Source: a virus
Lineage: Duplodnaviria > Heunggongvirae > Uroviricota > Caudoviricetes
Strand: one strand, 5' to 3'
DNA length: 26,841 nucleotides
Virus record (IMG/VR): IMGVR_UViG_2802429248_000008
Coordinates: 1 to 26,841 of that record
Shown: in pieces, positions 6,973 to 14,854 of the stretch
Layout: every line of letters starts with the position of its first letter
Position numbering within the stretch: the stretch's first letter is position 1
Position numbers and translations under genes: made by a program
Notes under the pieces: generated by a model
Database searches by the model: none
What the model was told of the DNA's origin: nothing
The model's input: only the letters and a program-made list of their open reading frames with translations

Positions 6973-7092
6973 GTAATCATCATGCACACACAAAAAAACC
7001 GCTTGCCATGCCGCAATCAGTCAGGTTACATTTCCGCTGCACCTCATAAAACGGGTGCCGGGATTCTCAACCTGCTGACAAACGAAGCGCAC

Positions 7093-7113
7093 AACCGCGC
7101 CAGCGGTTTTTTT
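7093..7113 (+). terminator. Rho-independent terminator inside the non-coding gap
   Basis: AACCGC (7093-7098), loop GCCA, GCGGTT (7103-7108), with a T run extending to 7113. Confidence 0.6.
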
Positions 7114-7154
7114 GTGCGTACTGTATTGCCACGTCTTTTTCGCATCAGAATTAT

Positions 7155-7235
7155 GGTGGGGCGTACGGGGCCGACTTCGGTCGGGCCGGTTTCTTCGTTT
7201 GCCGGTGTTGAGAACCCCGTACGTCTCGCCACCCC
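7155..7235 (+). ncRNA. Candidate structured antisense RNA with c4-like (P1/P7 immI-type) architecture
   Basis: Perfect 9-bp stem 7162-7170/7215-7223 and outer 5-bp stem 7155-7159/7229-7233. Inner hairpin CCGAC-UUCG-GUCGG (7171-7184). Second hairpin 7185-7190/7201-7206 with a 10-nt loop. The loop and the single-stranded 7207-7214 are complementary to duplicated targets at 7063-7087 and 7240-7284. No credible ORF is present. Confidence 0.55.
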
Positions 7236-7295
7236 GAGATTCTCAACTCTGGTTGGTGAGTATCCAAAAACTCACAAACGAAGAGGCCAAACACC

Positions 7296-7970: not shown

Positions 7971-10793
7971 ATGACGACAGAGTACATCAGGGACTGGCAA
8001 CAACCGCGCCACGCAGTAGGGCGTGAAGGAACGGGGATCCCCGCACCTGAATCCGCGCTTTCCTCCTGGCTGGATGCCTACCGGGCAGAGAACGAGCGCC
8101 GCCAGGAAAAGGCTGATGCGGTGTTCTCCGCCACGCCACTGGGCAACCTGATTAATAAAAGCCTGGACGCACAGGAAAAACAGGACAAAACCATCACTCT
8201 GGCAGGAGAAGCCAGAAGACAGGCACGCGGCGCGGTGGATGAAGCCATGGCCTCGCTGCGCCTGCTGCCGTCCTATCTGCGCGATCCGCTTATTCGCCAC
8301 CTCTCCTTCCTGCGCAAAAAACAGGAAGCCGATCGCCGGAAAGGCAAAAAGAGCTGGCAGGCAGAACGCTATGCACGCGGAACCCTGCGCAAGATATTCG
8401 ATCGCATTAACCGTGCCGACAGTCGCTGGCTGACACCGGGTTATCGCTCCCTTGCCGGACGCGAACGCCTGGACGATTTGCTTTACCTGCCGCAGCTCAA
8501 CAAACACCAGATACAGACGCTGGCCACCATGACGGCGGCGATGTTCAGCAGCACCTTCGAAAAACTCTGCGATGGCTTTGGCGCGACTGATGGTGAGCTG
8601 ACCATGGAGGTGGCACTGAAGGCGTATCAGATGCTGGCCCGCATGGCGTTACACCTGCACACCGTGCCGCCGCATTACGAAGCGCTGACAACAGACAAAG
8701 ACCGGAGGAACGAACCGGACACGGAGCTGCTGCCGGGCGCAATCCTTCGTCTGACCTGTGCGGAATGGTGGAAACGCAAACTGTGGCTGTTACGTTGCGA
8801 GTGGCGGGAAGAACAACTCCGTGCCGCCTGTCTGGTTTCCAGAAAAACATCGCCCTATCTGAGCCAGGACGCGTTAAGCGAGTTTCGCGCACAGCGCGAG
8901 AAAACACGCGATTTTCTGAAAAGTTTCATGCTGGAAAACGAAGACGGGTTCACGATTGATCTCGAGACAGTGTATTACGCGGGAGTAAGTAACCCGGTTC
9001 ACCGTAAGGCAGAAATGATGGCCACCATGAAGGGGCTGGAACTTCTGGCCGAAGCCCGTGGCGACAAAGCGGTGTTTCTGACTGTCACCTGCCCGTCAAA
9101 ATACCACGCCACAACAGAGAACGGTCATCCGAACCCCAGATGGAACGGGGCCACCATGCGCGACTCCAGCGATTACCTAGTTAACACGTTTTTTGCGGCG
9201 GTCCGCAAAAAACTGAACCGCGACGGTCTTCGCTGGTATGGCATCCGCACGGTGGAGCCTCACCATGACGGCACTGTGCACTGGCATATGATGGTCTTTG
9301 CACATCCGGAAGAAATCGACAGCATCGTGGCCATCACCCGCGATATTGCCATTCAGGAAGACCGCCACGAGCTGGGCAATGATATTACTCCGCGCTTTAA
9401 GGTGGAGTATGTCGACGGCTCAAAAGGCACACCGACCAGCTATATCGCCACCTACATCGGAAAAAACCTGGACAGCCGCGCCGTGGATGGCATCGACCCG
9501 AAAACGGGCAAGCCACGCGTTGACCACGAAACCGGAAAATCAATGGCCGAGAGCGTGGAGCGCGCCATCGGCTGGGCGCGCCTTCACCGCGTCCGCCAGT
9601 TCCAGTTCTTTGGCATCCCCTCCCGTCAGGTGTGGCGTGAACTGCGCCGCCTTGCCAGCCAGATGGCACGCAACCCGGAAGGCCCGCAACGGCTGAAGGA
9701 TGACGCAATGGATGCGGTACTCGCTGCCGCTGATGCCGGGTGTTTTGCCTCCTACATTGAAAAACAGGGTGGCGTACTTGTTCCACGCAAGGACTACCTG
9801 ATTCGCACCGCCTACGACCTCGCAGATGAGCTGAACGATTACGGCGAACAGGGCGTACAGATTTACGGGATCTGGTCACCACTCATCGGGGAATCCTCCC
9901 GTGTGTGCACGCACCCGGATAACTGGAAGCTGGTAAGACGTAAACCGGAACAGGAAGGTAGCGCCCACGAAAATGGTTTTGACCTTCAGGGCGGCCCTGC
10001 CGCCCCTTGGACCCGTGGCAATAACTGTCCCCGTGTACAGGAAACGGACAACAACGGGACAGAACAGCCGGAAGAACGGCCAGCACCGTGGCCGCAGCTT
10101 CCTGACGGCATTGAAGTGAACGAATGGATGCGCTCACTGAAACGGCACGAACGCCGGGCGCTGATGCGTTCGCTTCGTGACAAACAGGCAAAAAACAGCA
10201 GTGATGAAATGCAGAGCTGGACACAGAGCCGCAAACAGCAGCGGCCTTTGCCTGATAACCACGAATTACTCGCTAGAGAATGGCGGGAGTCTGCTGAATC
10301 TCTCGGCCTGCATATCGGTGAACAACAAATGCAGCACCTGTTACGGGGCGGCAGTCTGTACGTTGACGGCAGCATCATTGCACCGCAGGGATTTGAAATT
10401 GTACGCAAACCGGATACCCGCCCGGACAGCCGAATCACGCAGCTCTGGCAGCGCCTGAGCCGTAATCACGGTGTAAGCAGCACGGAGATCCGCCATAACC
10501 CGGTCGCCAGCTATCTGGCACAGCTGGGGGCATCAGACCCTGAAGCCGCCGCACGCCTGGCATCCACACTTCAGCAGGACCAGAACACCATGAAAACACC
10601 CGTTACCGTGCTTTCTGACATGCTGCGCGCCATCCGCGACGCAGAGCACGCACAGAGAATCAGTGAAACCACTGAACGCGCCCACCGCAAAGCAGACCTG
10701 CTGCGGGGTGGCCTGACCAGTGGAAACAAAAAACAGACAGAAACGGGACTCACGAATCCCGTAAATGAGCAAAAAACGCGCAGCGATATATGA
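7971..10793 (+). CDS. A: Rolling-circle replication initiator endonuclease (P2 gpA family), C-terminally extended
   Basis: 940 aa. HUH motif HHDGTVHWHMMVF at 9261-9299. Paired catalytic tyrosines YIATYIGKN at 9441-9467. Positioned as P2 A. Confidence 0.9.
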   Translation: MTTEYIRDWQQPRHAVGREGTGIPAPESALSSWLDAYRAENERRQEKADAVFSATPLGNLINKSLDAQEKQDKTITLAGEARRQARGAVDEAMASLRLLPSYLRDPLIRHLSFLRKKQEADRRKGKKSWQAERYARGTLRKIFDRINRADSRWLTPGYRSLAGRERLDDLLYLPQLNKHQIQTLATMTAAMFSSTFEKLCDGFGATDGELTMEVALKAYQMLARMALHLHTVPPHYEALTTDKDRRNEPDTELLPGAILRLTCAEWWKRKLWLLRCEWREEQLRAACLVSRKTSPYLSQDALSEFRAQREKTRDFLKSFMLENEDGFTIDLETVYYAGVSNPVHRKAEMMATMKGLELLAEARGDKAVFLTVTCPSKYHATTENGHPNPRWNGATMRDSSDYLVNTFFAAVRKKLNRDGLRWYGIRTVEPHHDGTVHWHMMVFAHPEEIDSIVAITRDIAIQEDRHELGNDITPRFKVEYVDGSKGTPTSYIATYIGKNLDSRAVDGIDPKTGKPRVDHETGKSMAESVERAIGWARLHRVRQFQFFGIPSRQVWRELRRLASQMARNPEGPQRLKDDAMDAVLAAADAGCFASYIEKQGGVLVPRKDYLIRTAYDLADELNDYGEQGVQIYGIWSPLIGESSRVCTHPDNWKLVRRKPEQEGSAHENGFDLQGGPAAPWTRGNNCPRVQETDNNGTEQPEERPAPWPQLPDGIEVNEWMRSLKRHERRALMRSLRDKQAKNSSDEMQSWTQSRKQQRPLPDNHELLAREWRESAESLGLHIGEQQMQHLLRGGSLYVDGSIIAPQGFEIVRKPDTRPDSRITQLWQRLSRNHGVSSTEIRHNPVASYLAQLGASDPEAAARLASTLQQDQNTMKTPVTVLSDMLRAIRDAEHAQRISETTERAHRKADLLRGGLTSGNKKQTETGLTNPVNEQKTRSDI

Positions 10794-10841
10794 AGCGCGC
10801 ACAAAACAGGCAAAAACGGGATTTCAGAATCCCGTAAACGA
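10726..10841 (+). repeat. Two ~41-bp direct repeats, each with an internal hairpin; candidate parC-like centromere/operator
   Basis: Copy 1 at 10726-10768 (acaaaaaacagacagaaacgggactcacgaatcccgtaaatga) and copy 2 at 10801-10841 (acaaaacaggcaaaaacgggatttcagaatcccgtaaacga). Core is ACGGGA-N8-TCCCGT. Copy 1 lies inside the end of A; copy 2 lies in the A-parM spacer. Confidence 0.6.
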
Positions 10842-10869
10842 TTAATTAATCAACATAAGGAAAAGCGAC

Positions 10870-11829
10870 ATGAAAATTTGTATCGACGACGGCTCCACCA
10901 ACATCAAGCTGGCATGGACTGAGAACAGCGAACGCCGCAACGCCATCAGCCCGAACAGCTTCAAGTCGGAATGGTCTGCGCCGTTCGGTGGCTCGCAGCC
11001 TGCGAACTACATGCTTGATGGCGTGCGCTATGGTTTTGATCCGGTCAGCGATCGCTTTGTCCAGACGACCGACACGCAATACCAGTACAGCGATGTGAAT
11101 GTAATCGCCATTCACCACGCGCTGGTCAAATCAGGCATCACACCACAGGAGGTGGATGTGGTTGTCACCCTGCCACTGAGCGAGTATTTCGACACAAACG
11201 CACAGCCGGACATGGCCAACATCAACCGCAAAAAAGCGAACGTTATGCGCCCGGTGGAGTACCAGAACGGTGAGGCATTCACTATCCGTAACGTGCGGGT
11301 TATGCCTGAATCCATTCCGGCTGGCTTTAAAGCACTGGCTGACATGAGTCCGTTTGAATCCCTGCTGATTGTGGATTTAGGCGGAACCACGCTGGATGTG
11401 GCAAAGGTTCAGGGACAACTGGCAGGTATCAGCCAGGTGTTTTGCGATCCACACGTAGGCGTTTCCCTGATGGCCGATGCCGTACTGTCGGTGATGGCCA
11501 CTAACGGTATGCGTACCAGTCACCACATCGCCAATACCATTATCGAACATCGCCATGATGAAGCCTGGCTGCGCCAGCACATCCACAATGACGCGCATTA
11601 CAACAGCCTGATGGCGGTTATTCGTGAAAAGGAAGAAACACTGAAACAACGCGTGATCCGCGCGCTGGCGGGTTTTTCGGGTTACGGGCGGGTGATGGTT
11701 GTCGGTGGAGGGGCGGAGATTGTGGCACCCGCTATCCGCGAAGCCTGCGGAGTTAATGCGACTTTCATCGCGGACGGGGTGCCACAGTTTGCTCTGGTTA
11801 ATGGGCTGTACGCAATGGACAAGGAGTAA
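10870..11829 (+). CDS. parM: ParM/StbA actin-like plasmid segregation ATPase
   Basis: 319 aa, aligning along its whole length with my recollection of R1 ParM. Shared segments include IDDGSTNIKL, YSDVNV-A-HHAL, VMPESIPAG, DLGGTTLD, GGGAE and LVNG-Y. Confidence 0.9.
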   Translation: MKICIDDGSTNIKLAWTENSERRNAISPNSFKSEWSAPFGGSQPANYMLDGVRYGFDPVSDRFVQTTDTQYQYSDVNVIAIHHALVKSGITPQEVDVVVTLPLSEYFDTNAQPDMANINRKKANVMRPVEYQNGEAFTIRNVRVMPESIPAGFKALADMSPFESLLIVDLGGTTLDVAKVQGQLAGISQVFCDPHVGVSLMADAVLSVMATNGMRTSHHIANTIIEHRHDEAWLRQHIHNDAHYNSLMAVIREKEETLKQRVIRALAGFSGYGRVMVVGGGAEIVAPAIREACGVNATFIADGVPQFALVNGLYAMDKE

Positions 11830-11833
11830 ACCA

Positions 11834-12145
11834 ATGACGACACCAACCAGACGGATAAGTTTCTATCTGAAGCCCGCCGCCGTCAAGAACGAAGGCGAAG
11901 CATGCGCCTGGCTGGACAGCCTTACACCAGAAGCCCGCAAAAGCGGCCAACGCGTGGCTTTTCTGGCCGGGCTGGCACTTCTGAAAATGAATCCGGCAGA
12001 GGCTTACCGACTGGCTGCATGGGCTGACGATGAGGCGTTATCGGTGACACAAACCAGGACAGAACGCCCCGTGTCACAGCCAGTACCAACCGCACAGATA
12101 ACCAGTCAGATGGCAGGGAATATCCGGGCATTATTTCCTGAATGA
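11834..12145 (+). CDS. parR: ParR-like centromere-binding adaptor
   Basis: 103 aa from ATG 11834, with an AAGGAG SD 7 nt upstream. The N-terminal ribbon-helix-helix-like segment RRISFYLKP...ACAWLDSL...RVAFLAGLAL parallels R1 ParR (RTIAFKLNP...LDSIP...AALTAGLAL). It lies immediately downstream of parM. Confidence 0.7.
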   Translation: MTTPTRRISFYLKPAAVKNEGEACAWLDSLTPEARKSGQRVAFLAGLALLKMNPAEAYRLAAWADDEALSVTQTRTERPVSQPVPTAQITSQMAGNIRALFPE

Positions 12146-12205
12146 CGAATTTGACGGCTTTTAATTTTATCGGGGTGCACTGTCGCCCCGCACGAGGAAA
12201 ACACG

Positions 12206-12730
12206 ATGAAAAAATACGAATACATGCTAATGAAAGAAGCACTGCGGGCTGGTCTGGCTCCCTGTCCTGTATCCGTAGAAGCTGTTGTTGGGAACACGAT
12301 TTTCCGAACGCTGCGAAATCGCGTATCCGTGAAGATGATTCACCAACCACCCAAATCTACCAGCATGATCTATCTGCCGCTGCCCGAGGCTATCAAACTT
12401 ATGCGTTCGCTGAAATTTGCGATTTGGATGCAGACACAGCTCAACAAAGCGGTGCAAAACACCTTCGTTAAGAAACTGATGCCGGAGCTTGCTGCCAGAT
12501 GTGCAAAATGTACCAGACCAGCACTTCAATTTGATCTGTCATTGATTCAACAAGCTACGGAGGCAGAACTGTACCGCCTGTCACCTCTCCATGATGCTCA
12601 CACGGAAGCCTCAGAAATGTTCCGGCTCATGTTTCAATTTAATTTTGCCGTTCGACGCACACGCGTTCAGGTCAATCGCATGATGCAGGCGCAGGAAGAG
12701 CTGACGCAACACAAAGGAGGCAACCAGTGA
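12206..12730 (+). CDS. Hypothetical protein, accessory hotspot gene 1
   Basis: 174-aa ORF with a GAGGA SD. No family recognised. Visibly more AT-rich than the late genes. Confidence 0.65.
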   Translation: MKKYEYMLMKEALRAGLAPCPVSVEAVVGNTIFRTLRNRVSVKMIHQPPKSTSMIYLPLPEAIKLMRSLKFAIWMQTQLNKAVQNTFVKKLMPELAARCAKCTRPALQFDLSLIQQATEAELYRLSPLHDAHTEASEMFRLMFQFNFAVRRTRVQVNRMMQAQEELTQHKGGNQ

Positions 12731-13317
12731 GCAAGATTGACTATCAGGCATTACGCGAACGTTATTCACCTGCGCCAGTACCGAAATGCCCTATTTGCGG
12801 CGAGGAAATGTCAATTCAGCGAATATCTGGAGCACAGGTTGTTTATGCCTGCTCCGGTTATGGTGATGATGGAGATTTCAAAATTGGTCGAACTCTTGCC
12901 GACGAACATTATGAAAAATCACGCGTAACAGTGTTGGATGTCGGGGATCCTGAAGTATTGGCGCTACTTGATTGGCTGGAAACTAAAGACAACCGAATCG
13001 CTGAACTGGAAAAAATCGCCACTGACTATGCACTTAAATTCCAGAAAGCACAGGACGCATTAAAGTATGCCGCTTTGCTGCATAGCCGGACGGCGCAACA
13101 AACCAATAATTTTGCAGTATCGCTTCCGGACATAAGCGAATATTTCATTAATGACGTATTTCAGCCCTTGCGATACGAGCGGGATGTTGAAAGAGCCATC
13201 ATAAAGGCTGGCGGAAAAGCATTGTGGCAGGAGAAACACGAGGACAGAACGCATCAGTCCTGCGATGTAAATTGTGGATGGTTTAGCCCACTGACGACAG
13301 ATAAAAATAACACCTGA
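12727..13317 (+). CDS. Hypothetical protein, accessory hotspot gene 2 (zinc-ribbon-like N-terminus plus Ea22-like coiled coil)
   Basis: 196 aa. The GTG start forms a GTGA overlap with gene 1, with an AAGGAGG SD 8 nt upstream. Motifs: CPICGEEM...YACSG and VLALLDWLETKDNRIAELEK. Confidence 0.65.
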   Translation: MSKIDYQALRERYSPAPVPKCPICGEEMSIQRISGAQVVYACSGYGDDGDFKIGRTLADEHYEKSRVTVLDVGDPEVLALLDWLETKDNRIAELEKIATDYALKFQKAQDALKYAALLHSRTAQQTNNFAVSLPDISEYFINDVFQPLRYERDVERAIIKAGGKALWQEKHEDRTHQSCDVNCGWFSPLTTDKNNT

Positions 13318-13329
13318 TCCCCCTCAAAC

Positions 13330-13355
13330 CAGGGCGATAATCGCGCATCGCCCTG
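13330..13355 (+). terminator. Stem-loop after the accessory cassette (possible terminator; no U tract)
   Basis: CAGGGCGAT (13330-13338) / ATCGCCCTG (13347-13355) with an 8-nt loop. Confidence 0.3.
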
Positions 13356-13479
13356 CTGCACAATAGCGCACAAATTTGCACAATTTTTTTGAAAGACTTT
13401 TTACCCTTCCGGCCCGCATGGTGGCTGGATCCGTCAAGGATCCGTGCGTGCACAAAAAAACGCGTTTTTTCTGCGCGCA

Positions 13480-13498
13480 GGTGACGGGGGAACAGCCC
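13480..13498. other. Candidate 19-nt cohesive-end core
   Basis: GGTGACGGGGGAACAGCCC matches 13 of 19 positions of the P2 cos sequence as I recall it (GGCGAGGCGGGGAAAGCAC). It is immediately preceded by two perfect palindromes. Confidence 0.3.
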
Positions 13499-13807
13499 GC
13501 GTTTCAGGGGGTAAATAGCATTCCCTGAACGATGTCGCAGAGATACAACAGAATGGCTGTATTTCTCACGCTGAGCGTGAAAAAGACGTGAGGGCTTTTG
13601 ATTTGATGGGGTGAAAGGTAAGGCCGTCAAAATCGCACTGAGACGGCGAGAACATGCAGCCAACGCGGTGGGATTGCGTAAGAGTCTGGCTGTCGATGAT
13701 GGCAATAAGCAGGAAAGCGTCGTGAAATTATCTGATTGATACAGGAGCTGGAGAGTCGGGGCATAAATTTTTTATGCCCCGGCGAAGCAGCAGACAAGCG
13801 AAGCGCG

Positions 13808-14854
13808 TCAGGATGTGGGCTGGGTGTCCAGCAGTGCATAAGGGTTAAAGCGGATCACCTCTTCGCCAAGCCAGTCATTGATGTGCTTCATGGCCTCCAT
13901 GACGGGCATCAGCTCGTTAATTGCGTAAACCCGCGCGGCCTTCTCCACATCACCAAACGCACTTTTTTCGCCCGGCATCGCCCCCATCAGTTGCGGCGGA
14001 ACGCGGTGCGCAGCCAGCACATCATCACGGGATGCCGCCTTGACATTCATGAACTCATCCTTTGCGGTGATCTGCTGGAACGGCAAAATTTGCACCCCCT
14101 CTTTGCCCCCGTTGGGCGCATGAATGAGCACGTTTTTAAACGCACCACCACCACGTGCACCCTGTAACGTTTCTTTCAGGGAGTCCATGCTTTCGCGGTT
14201 TACCTGCGCTGCACCGATGTAGATGATGCACCCGGCGTGGGATCCGTTGTCGTAATACAGTTTTCTGAACATGTCCGCCGAATGAGACAGGCTGGCCGAG
14301 AGTAATGCGCCGAGATATTCCGGCATGCCGTAAATTTCCTGGTTAATGTCCGGATTCATCAGGTGGCACACTTTGCCAGGGCGAAACTGGAACGCGTCCT
14401 TGCCATCCTGCACATACCACCATGATTCAAGATCGCTTCCGCGTCGCATGTATTTCGCCAGTGCGTGCCGTAATTTAAGCGGTTCGCCGAGCATATTGCT
14501 TCGAAGCTCAAGGAATGCGTTACCGAACACAAACCAGTCCAGCGCCAGCGCCGAGAAATCCTGCCGGGAAAGCAGCGGGTGCGGAATATAGCAACCGAGC
14601 AATACATTGCGCTTAAAGTAAAGCGCAGACTGATGCCAGGACGTTTGCCGGGCAGCTCTTGCCAGACCGTACCAGTCCACCGGGGTTTCATACCACCGCC
14701 CGTTATCAGCACAGTACATATTGTCCAGCAGGTCATGCCCGGTCAGGCGATAAGGACCATCAAATGTGAATGCACTGAGCGATGATTCTTTCCTGAGCGC
14801 ATCAGCGAGATCAATGCGTGAACTCATGCGCACTTTTTTATTTTTTCTGCTCAT
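13808..14854 (-). CDS. Q: Portal protein (P2 gpQ family)
   Basis: 348 aa, first gene left of cos. One-nucleotide overlap (TGATG) with the stop of the terminase gene. Size and position match P2 Q. Confidence 0.88.
   Translation of the reverse strand: MSRKNKKVRMSSRIDLADALRKESSLSAFTFDGPYRLTGHDLLDNMYCADNGRWYETPVDWYGLARAARQTSWHQSALYFKRNVLLGCYIPHPLLSRQDFSALALDWFVFGNAFLELRSNMLGEPLKLRHALAKYMRRGSDLESWWYVQDGKDAFQFRPGKVCHLMNPDINQEIYGMPEYLGALLSASLSHSADMFRKLYYDNGSHAGCIIYIGAAQVNRESMDSLKETLQGARGGGAFKNVLIHAPNGGKEGVQILPFQQITAKDEFMNVKAASRDDVLAAHRVPPQLMGAMPGEKSAFGDVEKAARVYAINELMPVMEAMKHINDWLGEEVIRFNPYALLDTQPTS

Follow-up and report, generated by a model that had tools for sequence, protein, structure and literature searches.

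An Ead/Ea22-family gene and an orphan gene behind parMR in the A-to-Q hotspot of a P2-family prophage

The locus and its signals

The window analysed here (the whole 26,841-nucleotide stretch of viral DNA) carries two same-strand open reading frames directly to the right of the partition genes parM and parR, referred to below as gene 1 and gene 2, followed by a stem-loop and by the portal gene Q on the opposite strand, an arrangement in agreement with the initial annotation of this DNA (Table 1). The parM call is made from Pfam matches to StbA_N (7.7e-82) and ParM_N (1.4e-68) and from PHROG 691 (partition protein), and agrees with the RefSeq annotation of a 99%-identical locus. Both gene 1 and gene 2 are oriented with the early operon. 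GC content over 12200-13400 is 45-49%, whereas gene A, parMR and the late genes have 53-60%, and so the AT-richness estimated earlier by eye holds up; equally the GTGA stop/start overlap, the AAGGAGG inside gene 1 six nucleotides before the GTG, and the closing 9-bp stem-loop with its 8-nt loop are present as had been described.

A scan for sigma-70-like promoters across 10700-13900 returned no sites against 2.8 expected. Since it also missed the presumed parMR promoter its silence is weak evidence, and the two genes may be expressed in a lysogen. A P2 cos 19-mer had no match in the window within 3 mismatches.

Table 1. Features of the parMR-to-Q interval, in coordinates of the window.
Feature	Position	Strand	Description
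parM	10870..11829	+	319 aa; actin-like plasmid segregation ATPase; lies to the left of the gene 1/gene 2 cargo in the A-to-Q interval
parR	11834..12145	+	103 aa; plasmid stability / centromere-binding; Pfam Plasmid_stab_B 4.1e-24
gene 1 leader	12146..12205	+	SD GAGGA (12194-12198), 7 nt to ATG; small hairpin 12171-12190
gene 1	12206..12730	+	ATG start, 174 aa
SD/stop/start joint	12714..12730	+	AAGGAGG 12714-12720, 6-nt spacer, GTG 12727-12729, TGA 12728-12730
gene 2	12727..13317	+	GTG start, 196 aa; Ead/Ea22 family (assigned by profile match)
gene 2 N module	12727-12948 (residues 1-74)	+	CxxC...C zinc-ribbon-like element
gene 2 coiled coil	12949-13095 (residues 75-123)	+	LLDWLE...RIAELE
gene 2 C module	13096-13314 (residues 124-196)	+	small alpha/beta + disordered tail
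stem-loop	13330..13355	+	CAGGGCGAT-8 nt-ATCGCCCTG; 9-bp stem; closes the variable cargo
portal gene Q	13808-14854	minus	right of the gene 1/gene 2 cargo

Gene 2 and the Ead/Ea22 family

Neither gene had initially been placed in any family, and for gene 1 this stands whereas for gene 2 it does not. By profile comparison gene 2 is a member of the Ead/Ea22 family: Pfam PF13935 (Ead_Ea22) matches residues 2-140 on profile positions 1-134 of 139 at 111.2 bits (gathering cut-off 27; E = 7.6e-32), PHROG 368 matches at 4.4e-31, the RefSeq label is 'ead/Ea22-like family protein', and PF13935 is found in all 120 of the homologues listed, out of 525 gene 2 homologues. The family is a large one, with hundreds of clusters in enterobacterial prophages, Stx phages included.

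The organisation of the protein into an N region, a coiled coil and a variable C domain is that described for the family (PMC10834534). An AF2 model (pLDDT 60.5) has a single helix spanning the coiled-coil segment between two small domains, in line with the Ea22-like coiled coil that had been proposed from inspection of the translation. Across the family alignment M1, S2, I4, Y6 and L9 are conserved and L80, L81, L94 and E95 of the coiled coil are invariant, while the C modules diverge. The alignment is a mosaic in which four alternative N modules are recombined with the same C module, and the N module of gene 2 is itself joined to many C modules. A zinc ribbon (CxxC...CxxC) has four metal ligands, in two knuckles on either side of a beta-hairpin. 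Cysteines C21, C24 and C42 are kept throughout the homologues that share the N module of gene 2, and of these P0042 and P0100 alone have a fourth; the AF2 model has strands at 29-34 and 37-41 (pLDDT about 70), and matches of the N module to Pfam zinc ribbons are weak and sub-threshold (E = 0.013-0.12).

Gene 1, an orphan under selection

Gene 1 has no family match in Pfam, PHROGs (best E = 0.34), NCBIfam or PADLOC, nothing at E <= 10 in the PDB by sequence or by profile, and no tblastn match at E <= 1 among 50,697 phage records. An exhaustive profile search of a 1.84-billion-protein library gave 3 representative clusters, and a second, indexed profile search found 13 clusters among 5.8 billion, all of them close relatives, those with a named source organism all being from Escherichia/Shigella. 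By these searches gene 1 belongs to an orphan family confined to P2-like prophages of Escherichia/Shigella.

The gene 1 protein is basic (pI 10.0) and predicted to be mostly alpha-helical. No TM segment is seen in it (maximum KD19 = 1.23), and neither gene 1 nor gene 2 has an enzymatic, ATPase, nuclease or TM domain, in line with the earlier remark that gene 1 carries no TM segment and no Walker or nuclease motif. The AF2 model built from a 6-sequence family alignment has a pLDDT of 44, and Foldseek against BFVD with this low-confidence model gave only noise (nothing at E <= 0.001); because the models of both proteins are poor (pLDDT 44 and 60), fold-level homology to defence or anti-defence proteins may have been missed.

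Codon comparisons of six variants, down to 45% identity, gave dN/dS of 0.20-0.43 with a third-codon-position excess, and frame and length (151-188 aa) are kept in all diverged variants; at the level of codons, this shows purifying selection on gene 1. Truncated or fused variants also occur (P0004, P0005, P0007).

Upstream, the leader folds no better than shuffled sequences (z = -0.16). In four loci (L013, L014, L015, L018) it lies downstream of zf-C4_ClpX genes, alone or together with the initial 83 nt of gene 1, this placement after a ClpX-type zinc-finger gene occurring in prophages and in plasmids, and in L018 a ClpX zinc-finger pseudogene remnant lies upstream of gene 1. From the leader's position elsewhere and the L018 remnant, the arrangement in the window derives from a larger cassette of SSB, ClpX zinc-finger, gene 1 and Ea22 genes. 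A role for gene 1 as an accessory of ParMR was considered and rejected, homologues being present in P2-like loci without parMR (L010, L025).

A portable joint between the two genes

The overlap of the two genes is real as sequence, but the translational coupling that had been read from it as a property of the pair is not specific to them, as other Ea22 genes are joined in the same manner. The joint encodes the C-terminal KGGNQ-stop of gene 1, a stretch that also supplies the SD of gene 2. An identical joint (KGGNQ-stop / VSKIDYQALRE) leads from Ea22-like ORF15 to Ea22-like ORF14 in the Stx phage P13374, and a 48-nt match is found in well over 100 lambdoid phage records. After gene 1 homologues the joint is kept whatever comes next, be it a full Ea22 gene, an Ea22 stub or DUF7446. 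These alignments show the SD/GTGA joint to be a portable, reusable linker, by which other genes too are attached to Ea22 genes in Stx phages.

The KGGNQ end common to gene 1 and an Ea22-type protein had raised the idea that gene 1 is a diverged Ea22; comparison with the Ea22 family by hhalign gave a probability of 0.5%, and the common end is the joint and not protein homology. The joint suggests a simple explanation for the Ea22 C-terminal motif of 'unknown significance'.

Occurrence and breakpoints

Among 5,426 complete E. coli genomes parR occurs in 658, gene 2 in 134, gene 1 in 29 and the full pair in 21; of the 134 genomes with gene 2, at least 105 have no gene 1. Gene 2 comes immediately after parR in phage P88-4B11, as it does in most of the E. 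coli prophages that have this allele; in P88-4B11 and E. coli 2014C-3051 the same gene, at 97-98% identity, stands behind 66 bp of spacer that supply an ATG and an SD of its own. Conversely, in five loci an intact gene 1 stands next to an Ea22 pseudogene stub of 24 codons, with a YafO-type cassette after it, L025 has a DUF7446 gene after gene 1, and L022 a decayed Ea22 start. Each gene thus occurs separately, and the genome comparisons show that the two are neither obligate partners nor a co-inherited unit. An Ea22 start or remnant follows gene 1 in 8 of 9 variants, which could mean a functional link and not only a recombination joint.

The breakpoints are sharp. Alignment to P88-4B11-type loci ends at 12143, and on its left the gene 1 module breaks at the parR stop codon (12143-12145). 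A 584-bp segment of the window (12144-12727) exactly replaces the 66-bp parR-Ea22 spacer of those loci, the insertion of gene 1 with its own leader running precisely from the parR stop codon to the start codon of the Ea22 gene. To the right, the backbone common to other P2-like prophages resumes at 13356 (matches start at 13356-13358), immediately after the stem-loop.

A 71-nt stretch around that hairpin folds at -18.4 kcal/mol (z = -2.4), and the motif has one match in the window against 0 expected. It also follows the Ea22 gene in L002, L004, L013 and L020, and in P88-4B11-type loci a second copy precedes the Ea22 gene. As an intrinsic terminator the hairpin was rejected: it is without a U tract and so is not a canonical one, and a terminator scan of the plus strand made no call. 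It is possibly an mRNA 3' stabiliser or a module-boundary element.

The cargo of the hotspot

That the A-to-Q interval is an exchange point had been put forward at the outset, and it is a documented P2-family hotspot with 1,650 arrangements in 18,150 loci (Rousset 2022, PMC9122126). Tabulating its occupants in related E. coli prophages confirmed that the cargo after parMR varies: Ea22 alone, DUF3800, DUF4760, XF1762, ClpX-zinc-finger cassettes, Phd/Doc and YafO are all found there. The gene 1/gene 2 arrangement was already catalogued by Rousset et al. 2022 (PMC9122126), 'Ea22' is missing from their table of systems evaluated for defence (PMC9122126), and part of the hotspot cargo is by their account non-defensive, for example partition systems and toxins (PMC9122126).

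Given the sequence comparisons above, the pair is unremarkable cargo: this well-studied hotspot has more than a thousand catalogued arrangements, half of the present one falls in a named family, and no picture is changed by it. It is a clean natural example of lambdoid-type ea modules being moved into P2-family phages by way of a reusable SD/stop/start joint. A defence or counter-defence role is possible but unsupported by anything found in the analysis, and a phenotype of that kind, if there were one, for gene 1 or for a P2-family Ea22 allele would give the Ead/Ea22 family its first molecular function.

Proposed explanation

The reading we favour, by a little better than an even chance, is that 12146-13355 is the A-to-Q hotspot cargo of a P88-like (Xuanwuvirus) prophage of E. 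coli, made of two independently exchangeable early accessory modules, with no dedicated two-gene system, gene 2 being Ea22-like and gene 1 a separate factor. Modules of this kind fill the lambdoid exo-xis/ea regions. Transcription of the two genes would run rightward, at the end of the early (cox...A-parMR) transcript or of a parMR transcript, and gene 2 would be translated by coupling to gene 1.

In lambda and Phi24B ea22 is an early pL gene which favours lysogeny (PMC7093339, PMC10834534). Its deletion in either phage shortens latency, enlarges burst size and lowers host survival, and in lambda also lowers lysogenisation (PMC7093339); the protein is a tetramer with a variable CTD and without a known partner (PMC10834534). 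By analogy gene 2 is probably a lambda Ea22-like modulator favouring lysogeny: an early-made oligomeric coiled-coil protein that would slow lytic development, so that host survival and lysogeny are favoured, and which may bind some host or phage partner via its variable end modules. The lambda phenotype is mild, the C modules of lambda Ea22 and of gene 2 are unrelated, and gene 2 sits in a defence-enriched hotspot and not in an exo-xis region under pL. Gene 1 would then be a separate early host-directed or counter-defence factor with no need of an Ea22 protein. It is doubtful that gene 1, alone or with the Ea22 coiled-coil scaffold as partner, founds a new class of small phage immune or anti-immune effector, a reading which cites its restriction to Escherichia, its basic and helical character, the purifying selection, its occurrence only in the P2-family hotspot and its position nearly always at an Ea22-type start.

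Other readings of the pair

The strongest of the other readings, though an unlikely one, is counter-defence, with one or both proteins neutralising host or rival-prophage immunity early in infection or induction and the variable Ea22 end modules serving as evolving inhibitor surfaces, after the manner of small proteins of the lambdoid ea/recombination regions. The early-operon orientation with no promoter of its own detected would suit this, as would the extreme shuffling of N and C modules among Ea22 proteins, of a sort usual for proteins in an arms race, the host-directed look of the SSB and ClpX-zinc-finger cassette neighbours found elsewhere, and the very narrow distribution of gene 1, which fits a specific target. 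A 2026 preprint describes these loci as a reservoir of anti-immunity proteins (10.64898/2026.07.10.737580), and reports that Oad2, an anti-OLD protein, is a relative of P22 EaE and that Oad2 is, in some phages, part of a fusion with an EaD/Ea22 protein (10.64898/2026.07.10.737580). However the Oad2 link is indirect, going via a family fusion partner in other phages, and in the searches run neither protein is similar in sequence or fold to any characterised anti-defence protein.

Rather improbable is the reading for which the pair had at first been singled out, a prophage defence or exclusion pair by which gene 1 and gene 2 jointly block superinfecting phages in the lysogen, for example as sensor and effector in abortive infection, compare P2 old and tin. 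The gpA-gpQ hotspot does host old/tin and several validated systems (PMC9122126), the cargo GC is below that of the backbone, the alternatives at the same site include TA modules and known defence-type cargo, gene 1 is without any known function, and a basic and an acidic protein (pI 10 and 5.2) could form a complex. However a check against PADLOC-DB v2.0.0, with its profiles of known and candidate defence systems, gave no family at E <= 1 for either gene, nor for ParM or ParR, the enzymatic, ATPase, nuclease and TM domains are all absent, and ABC ATPase and TOPRIM domains of the P2 Old type are found in neither protein by Pfam or NCBIfam, both being under 200 aa. The two genes are not co-inherited, their coupling joint is generic, no promoter was detected and they run in the early-operon direction, the gene 2 family is known for expression in the early lytic phase and a lysogeny-favouring role, and the hotspot carries non-defence cargo too. 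No paper was found tying Ea22 to anti-phage defence, save for the indirect Oad2 remark. The arguments for defence from position, coupling and composition are weaker than first appeared.

Far less probable again is a type II toxin-antitoxin-like addiction module stabilising the prophage or its plasmid form alongside parMR: two small overlapping genes do adjoin a partition system, one protein is basic and the other acidic, and Phd/Doc and YafO modules occupy the same site in sister prophages, yet no TA-family domain is found in Pfam, NCBIfam or PADLOC, 174 and 196 aa are large for typical type II pairs, the gene 2 family is not known as toxic, and each gene is stably present without the other, which would be lethal or pointless for a toxin and antitoxin. 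That gene 1 is non-functional, a chance ORF or decaying remnant in a recombination scar, as its orphan status, low-confidence structure prediction and truncated or fused variants might suggest, is just as improbable against the purifying selection, the preserved frame and length, and an SD of its own at proper spacing.

Comparison with known systems

P2 old/tin and the Rousset systems (PARIS, DUF4238, 3HP, DprA-PRTase, TIR+TM) occupy the same gpA-gpQ slot near cos and have, by PADLOC, no sequence relationship to gene 1 or gene 2, which, unlike the hotspot defence systems, lack ATPase, TOPRIM, TIR and TM domains. The Oad2 and P22 EaE-type anti-OLD proteins of lambdoid recombination loci are likewise small, early and accessory, and come out of the same pool of shuffling genes; in the searches run no similarity to characterised anti-defence proteins was detectable for gene 1 or gene 2, Oad2 being compared by description only.

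With the Ea22 proteins of lambda and the Stx phages (Phi24B, 933W, P27) gene 2 shares the PF13935 match, and it has both the M-S-x-I-D-Y-Q-A-L-R-E N-terminal signature and the LLDxLE...RIAELE coiled coil of the family. An unrelated C-terminal module is itself typical of the family, Ea22 CTDs are described as acidic (PMC10834534) and the gene 2 protein is acidic too (pI 5.2), and in Stx phages the Ea22 start overlaps the upstream stop through the same joint. The differences are several. Lambda Ea22 lies in the exo-xis region under pL, whereas gene 2 lies after parMR in the P2-family A-to-Q hotspot, between parR and the cos/portal region. The C module of gene 2 is unrelated to the solved lambda CTD, with no PDB sequence or fold match; Foldseek of the model against PDB and BFVD gave nothing at E <= 0.001, and failure to recover the lambda CTD is expected of an unrelated module. 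The N module has a CxxC...C element which lambda Ea22 lacks, and the K/R-G-E tripeptide with which the Ea22 proteins compared in PMC7093339 commonly end is absent from gene 2, which ends ...TTDKNNT, many homologues with other C modules ending ...IRIKGE.

Also close is VUD40217.1 of Escherichia phage P88-4B11 (Xuanwuvirus; LR595891 / NC_049391), the same gene as gene 2, placed after parM-parR and last before the genome end, with 97.8% DNA identity over 12728-13355, terminal hairpin included. In that phage gene 1 is missing, and the 66-bp spacer provides the gene with an ATG and an SD of its own, along with a hairpin upstream; in place of that spacer the window has the 584-bp gene 1 module, and a GTG start.

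Layout of the locus

The window is an E. coli prophage of the P2 family. Two genes stand between parR and the portal gene Q, and on balance we favour reading them as two independently shuffled early accessory modules in a known hotspot. The physical description in the initial annotation (ORFs, overlap, embedded Shine-Dalgarno (SD) sequence, GC content, stem-loop) was correct, all of it being confirmed in the sequence. The gene 1 TGA (12728-12730) overlaps the gene 2 GTG (12727-12729), AAGGAGG at 12714-12720 lies 6 nt 5' of that GTG, and 12200-13400 is 45-49% GC where gene A, parMR and the late genes are 53-60%. The 71-nt stretch holding the hairpin 3' of gene 2 reaches -18.4 kcal/mol (z = -2.4), with no U tract after the hairpin and no + strand call by the terminator scan.

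Two 42-nt direct repeats, each with a palindrome ACGGGA-n8-TCCCGT, straddle the gene A stop codon (10793) just 5' of parM, the first copy lying in the coding end of gene A; they could be the parC centromere or ParR-binding site together with the parMR promoter region. Adjoining isrK and C4 antisense RNA matches in the early region, both above the Rfam gathering score, are what we take to be the regulatory RNA pair of P1/P7-type antirepressor control, here in a P2-family prophage.

Coordinates of features in the window and in comparison loci from other genomes (L numbers)
Feature	Locus	Coordinates	Strand	Remarks
isrK match	window	7039-7113	+	62 bits
C4 antisense RNA match	window	7149-7236	+	79 bits
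Gene A	window	7971-10793		Phage_GPA, 1e-129
42-nt direct repeats	window	10727-10768; 10800-10841		81% identical
parM	window	10870-11829		after gene A
parR	window	11834-12145		after parM
Gene 1	window	12206-12730	+	ATG, 174 aa
Gene 2	window	12727-13317	+	GTG, 196 aa
Hairpin	window	13330-13355		9-bp stem, 8-nt loop
Portal gene Q	window	13808-14854	opposite to genes 1 and 2	
Paired hairpins, P88-4B11-type	L002	7945-7962; 8603-8628		
Paired hairpins, P88-4B11-type	L004	755-772; 1413-1438		
Proposed SD-footprint site	window	12714-12730		also C-termini in alignment A3
Proposed SD-footprint site	L011	2495-2520		
Slot after gene 1, sister prophages	L012	3258-4241		also L016-L019; 197-aa hypothetical, YafO-family toxin
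Longer cassette	L005	7015-9684		
Longer cassette	L024	4392-6978		

Gene 2 and the Ea22 family

The pair had been called unassignable, which holds for gene 1 but not for gene 2: residues 2-140 score 111 bits on Pfam PF13935 (Ead/Ea22-like; cut-off 27, E = 7.6e-32), PHROG 368 is matched as well (4.4e-31), and RefSeq names it 'ead/Ea22-like family protein'. A search of a large protein collection gave 525 homologues, with PF13935 in all 120 of the 120 listed. In an alignment of 40 homologues the proteins open with a conserved M-S-x-I-D/N-Y-Q-A-L-R-E, go on to one of at least four unrelated N modules, continue with a coiled coil in which L80, L81, L94 and E95 are the sole invariant columns, and end in a C module. 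The N module of the window, RERYSPxPxPxCxxCGEEMSIQRISG..VVYACSG, has many different C modules attached in other prophages, and the C module (residues 96-196) is found with all four N modules. The earlier term 'zinc-ribbon-like' is fair as a description of the CxxC...C pattern, although only three Cys are conserved and a fourth is kept in two homologues. In the AF2 model (pLDDT 60.5) a small beta-containing N domain leads into one long helix at 75-123, after which come a small alpha/beta domain and a disordered tail; PDB and BFVD gave it no significant match.

The ea22 gene of lambda and Phi24B is expressed early from pL, and its deletion gives shorter latency, larger burst size and fewer surviving hosts, and in lambda also lowers lysogenisation (PMC7093339); lambda Ea22 forms a tetramer, its CTD is variable, and no partner has been identified (PMC10834534). 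Gene 2 may well act likewise: its coiled-coil product would form oligomers and, via a partner, temper lytic development in favour of lysogeny. Counter-defence cargo is the strongest rival, possible if hardly likely: a 2026 preprint (10.64898/2026.07.10.737580) on P2 Old reports that the anti-Old protein Oad2, a relative of P22 EaE, is fused to an EaD/Ea22 protein in some phages, and it proposes that Oad2-type loci serve as a reservoir for anti-immunity proteins. Rousset et al. 2022 (PMC9122126) define the gpA-gpQ interval as a hotspot and count 1,650 arrangements among 18,150 loci; according to them, about a quarter of P2-like phages have a partition system there, and part of the cargo is non-defensive.

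Insertion breakpoints and the joint

Gene 2 has a counterpart at 97-98% DNA identity in phage P88-4B11, a Xuanwuvirus of the Peduoviridae, and in E. coli 2014C-3051. There, unlike in the window, parR is followed by a 66-bp spacer (with hairpin, SD and ATG) and then the Ea22 gene, with no gene 1 between, and in most carriers the gene 2 allele comes directly after parR. By pairwise BLAST, homology to these loci runs to 12143, the first base of the parR stop, and picks up again at 12728, the middle base of the gene 2 GTG; their spacer is replaced by 584 bp (12144-12727), the leader and gene 1. At the right-hand end, P2-like prophages with different cargo align to the window from 13356-13358 onward, which makes the hairpin the last cargo element. 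Its motif also lies 3' of the Ea22 gene in four other loci. P88-4B11-type loci have the Ea22 gene flanked by two hairpins with common arms CAGGGCGA / TCGCCCTG; in the window the upstream copy is replaced by the gene 1 module, and the paired motif may be a module-boundary or RNA-stability element. The same P88-like prophage is integrated in the Salmonella enterica plasmid pS2122_1 (L020; NZ_CP110658.1, 112215-125424), where the gene 1 protein (WP_000759755) is identical and the DNA of the pair 99.3% identical, and so the prophage has crossed genera on a large IncHI2 plasmid (272 kb, typed non-mobilizable by MOB-suite).

The GTGA overlap and embedded SD are real, but fail as a sign of mutual need. 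The 48 nt across the junction of genes 1 and 2 have a 94% match in well over 100 lambdoid and Stx phage records. In Stx phage P13374 the Ea22-like ORF15 ends ...RKGGNQ (stop) and the next Ea22-like ORF starts VSKIDYQALRE, the DNA being identical to the window joint, AAAGGAGGCAACCAGTGAGCAAGATTGACTATCAGGCA; the left half (SD...CAGTGA) is kept after every gene 1 homologue, whatever gene is next. The joint is therefore portable and generic, the way in which gene-pool modules plug together. PMC7093339 describes the K/R-G-E tripeptide at the C-terminus of Ea22 proteins as 'of unknown significance'. Since AAR-GGN-GAR codes such an end and spells an SD, as KGG does in gene 1, the tripeptide would most simply be the trace left in the protein by an SD that serves a following coupled gene; gene 2, which stands last before cos, has neither the tripeptide nor a downstream gene.

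Separate occurrence of the two genes

Among 5,426 complete E. coli genomes (coverage >= 80%, the full pair excepted) parR is found in 658, the gene 2 allele in 134, gene 1 in 29 and the full pair in 21, which leaves at least 105 of the 134 carriers of the gene 2 allele without gene 1. Five loci (DSM 103246, GPEC1031, F95, CDE6306 and MFDS1022581) have an intact gene 1 (>= 98% identity) and, behind it, an Ea22 pseudogene cut down to 24 codons, after which come a 197-aa ORF and a YafO-family toxin. Downstream of diverged gene 1 homologues lie Ea22 ORFs of 179, 173, 99 or 63 aa, or else a 37-aa truncated Ea22, a decayed startless remnant or a DUF7446 gene; one lineage has an intact Ea22 gene 5' of gene 1, not 3'. 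Genes 1 and 2 are not an obligate unit. A two-gene defence or exclusion system, for which position, coupling and composition had spoken, is improbable, and 'Ea22' is absent from the table of systems evaluated for defence in Rousset et al. 2022. One sister locus (L014) has an opposite-strand Phd/Doc pair after a ClpX-zinc-finger gene; with the YafO cassettes this means that toxin-antitoxin cargo alternates with Ea22 here. That the pair of genes 1 and 2 is itself an addiction module is very unlikely. The 147-aa protein P0005, seen on one E. coli contig of 15 kb, arose from the pair by deletion: it is a natural in-frame fusion of gene 1 residues 1-119 with the final ~30 residues of gene 2 (...EDRTHQSCDVNRGWFSPLTTDKNNT).

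Genes for a ClpX-type zinc-finger protein and an SSB are often found 5' of gene 1. The gene 1 leader follows a ClpX zinc-finger gene even in L014, where gene 1 is truncated, and in plasmid L015, which has no gene 1 but does have a gene for a Ref-family nuclease, and CDE6306 keeps a zinc-finger pseudogene remnant 5' of gene 1; the window thus looks like a cut-down SSB / ClpX zinc-finger / gene 1 / Ea22 cassette. Related P2-like prophages have a longer cassette, in the order 66-aa ORF, SSB, ClpX C4-type zinc finger (a phage-encoded look-alike of the ClpX zinc-binding domain), gene 1 homologue, short Ea22, and 75-aa and 167-aa ORFs, L024 being without the zinc-finger and 75-aa genes. It resembles a transplanted lambdoid or plasmid leading-region-like early accessory block.

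Gene 1

With single sequence and family profile alike, gene 1 has no family match in Pfam, PHROGs (best E = 0.34), NCBIfam, PADLOC or PDB. An indexed search of 5.8 billion clusters gives 8 matching ones (13 with the profile), all Escherichia or Shigella where a source names the organism, an exhaustive profile search of a 1.84-billion-protein library gives 3 representative clusters, and tblastn finds nothing at E <= 1 in 50,697 deposited phage genomes. Gene 1 encodes a basic protein (pI 10.0), predicted mostly helical and with no TM segment, and its AF2 model (pLDDT 44) is too low for fold inference. Descent from Ea22 was rejected (hhalign probability 0.5%). That gene 1 is non-functional is scarcely credible: frame and length are preserved across six variants, down to 45% identity, and dN/dS of 0.20-0.43, with third-position changes in excess, indicates purifying selection on what is, judged by its sequence, an orphan but real gene.

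Expression, function and comparison with known systems

Genes 1 and 2 might be co-transcribed rightward as part of the early or the parMR transcript. A scan of 10700-13900 detected nothing promoter-like, a silence that counts for little because the scan also missed any parMR promoter. Translation of gene 2 would be coupled to that of gene 1, and gene 1 would have a separate, host-directed or counter-defence role; that it is a new immune or anti-immune effector, alone or with an Ea22 scaffold, is a tentative suggestion at best. Nothing seen here suggests a system of a new kind. The family of gene 2 is known and was already annotated and catalogued at this site, the allele being what is new; gene 1 makes up a very narrow, uncharacterised family, and such genes are known in their hundreds from this hotspot.
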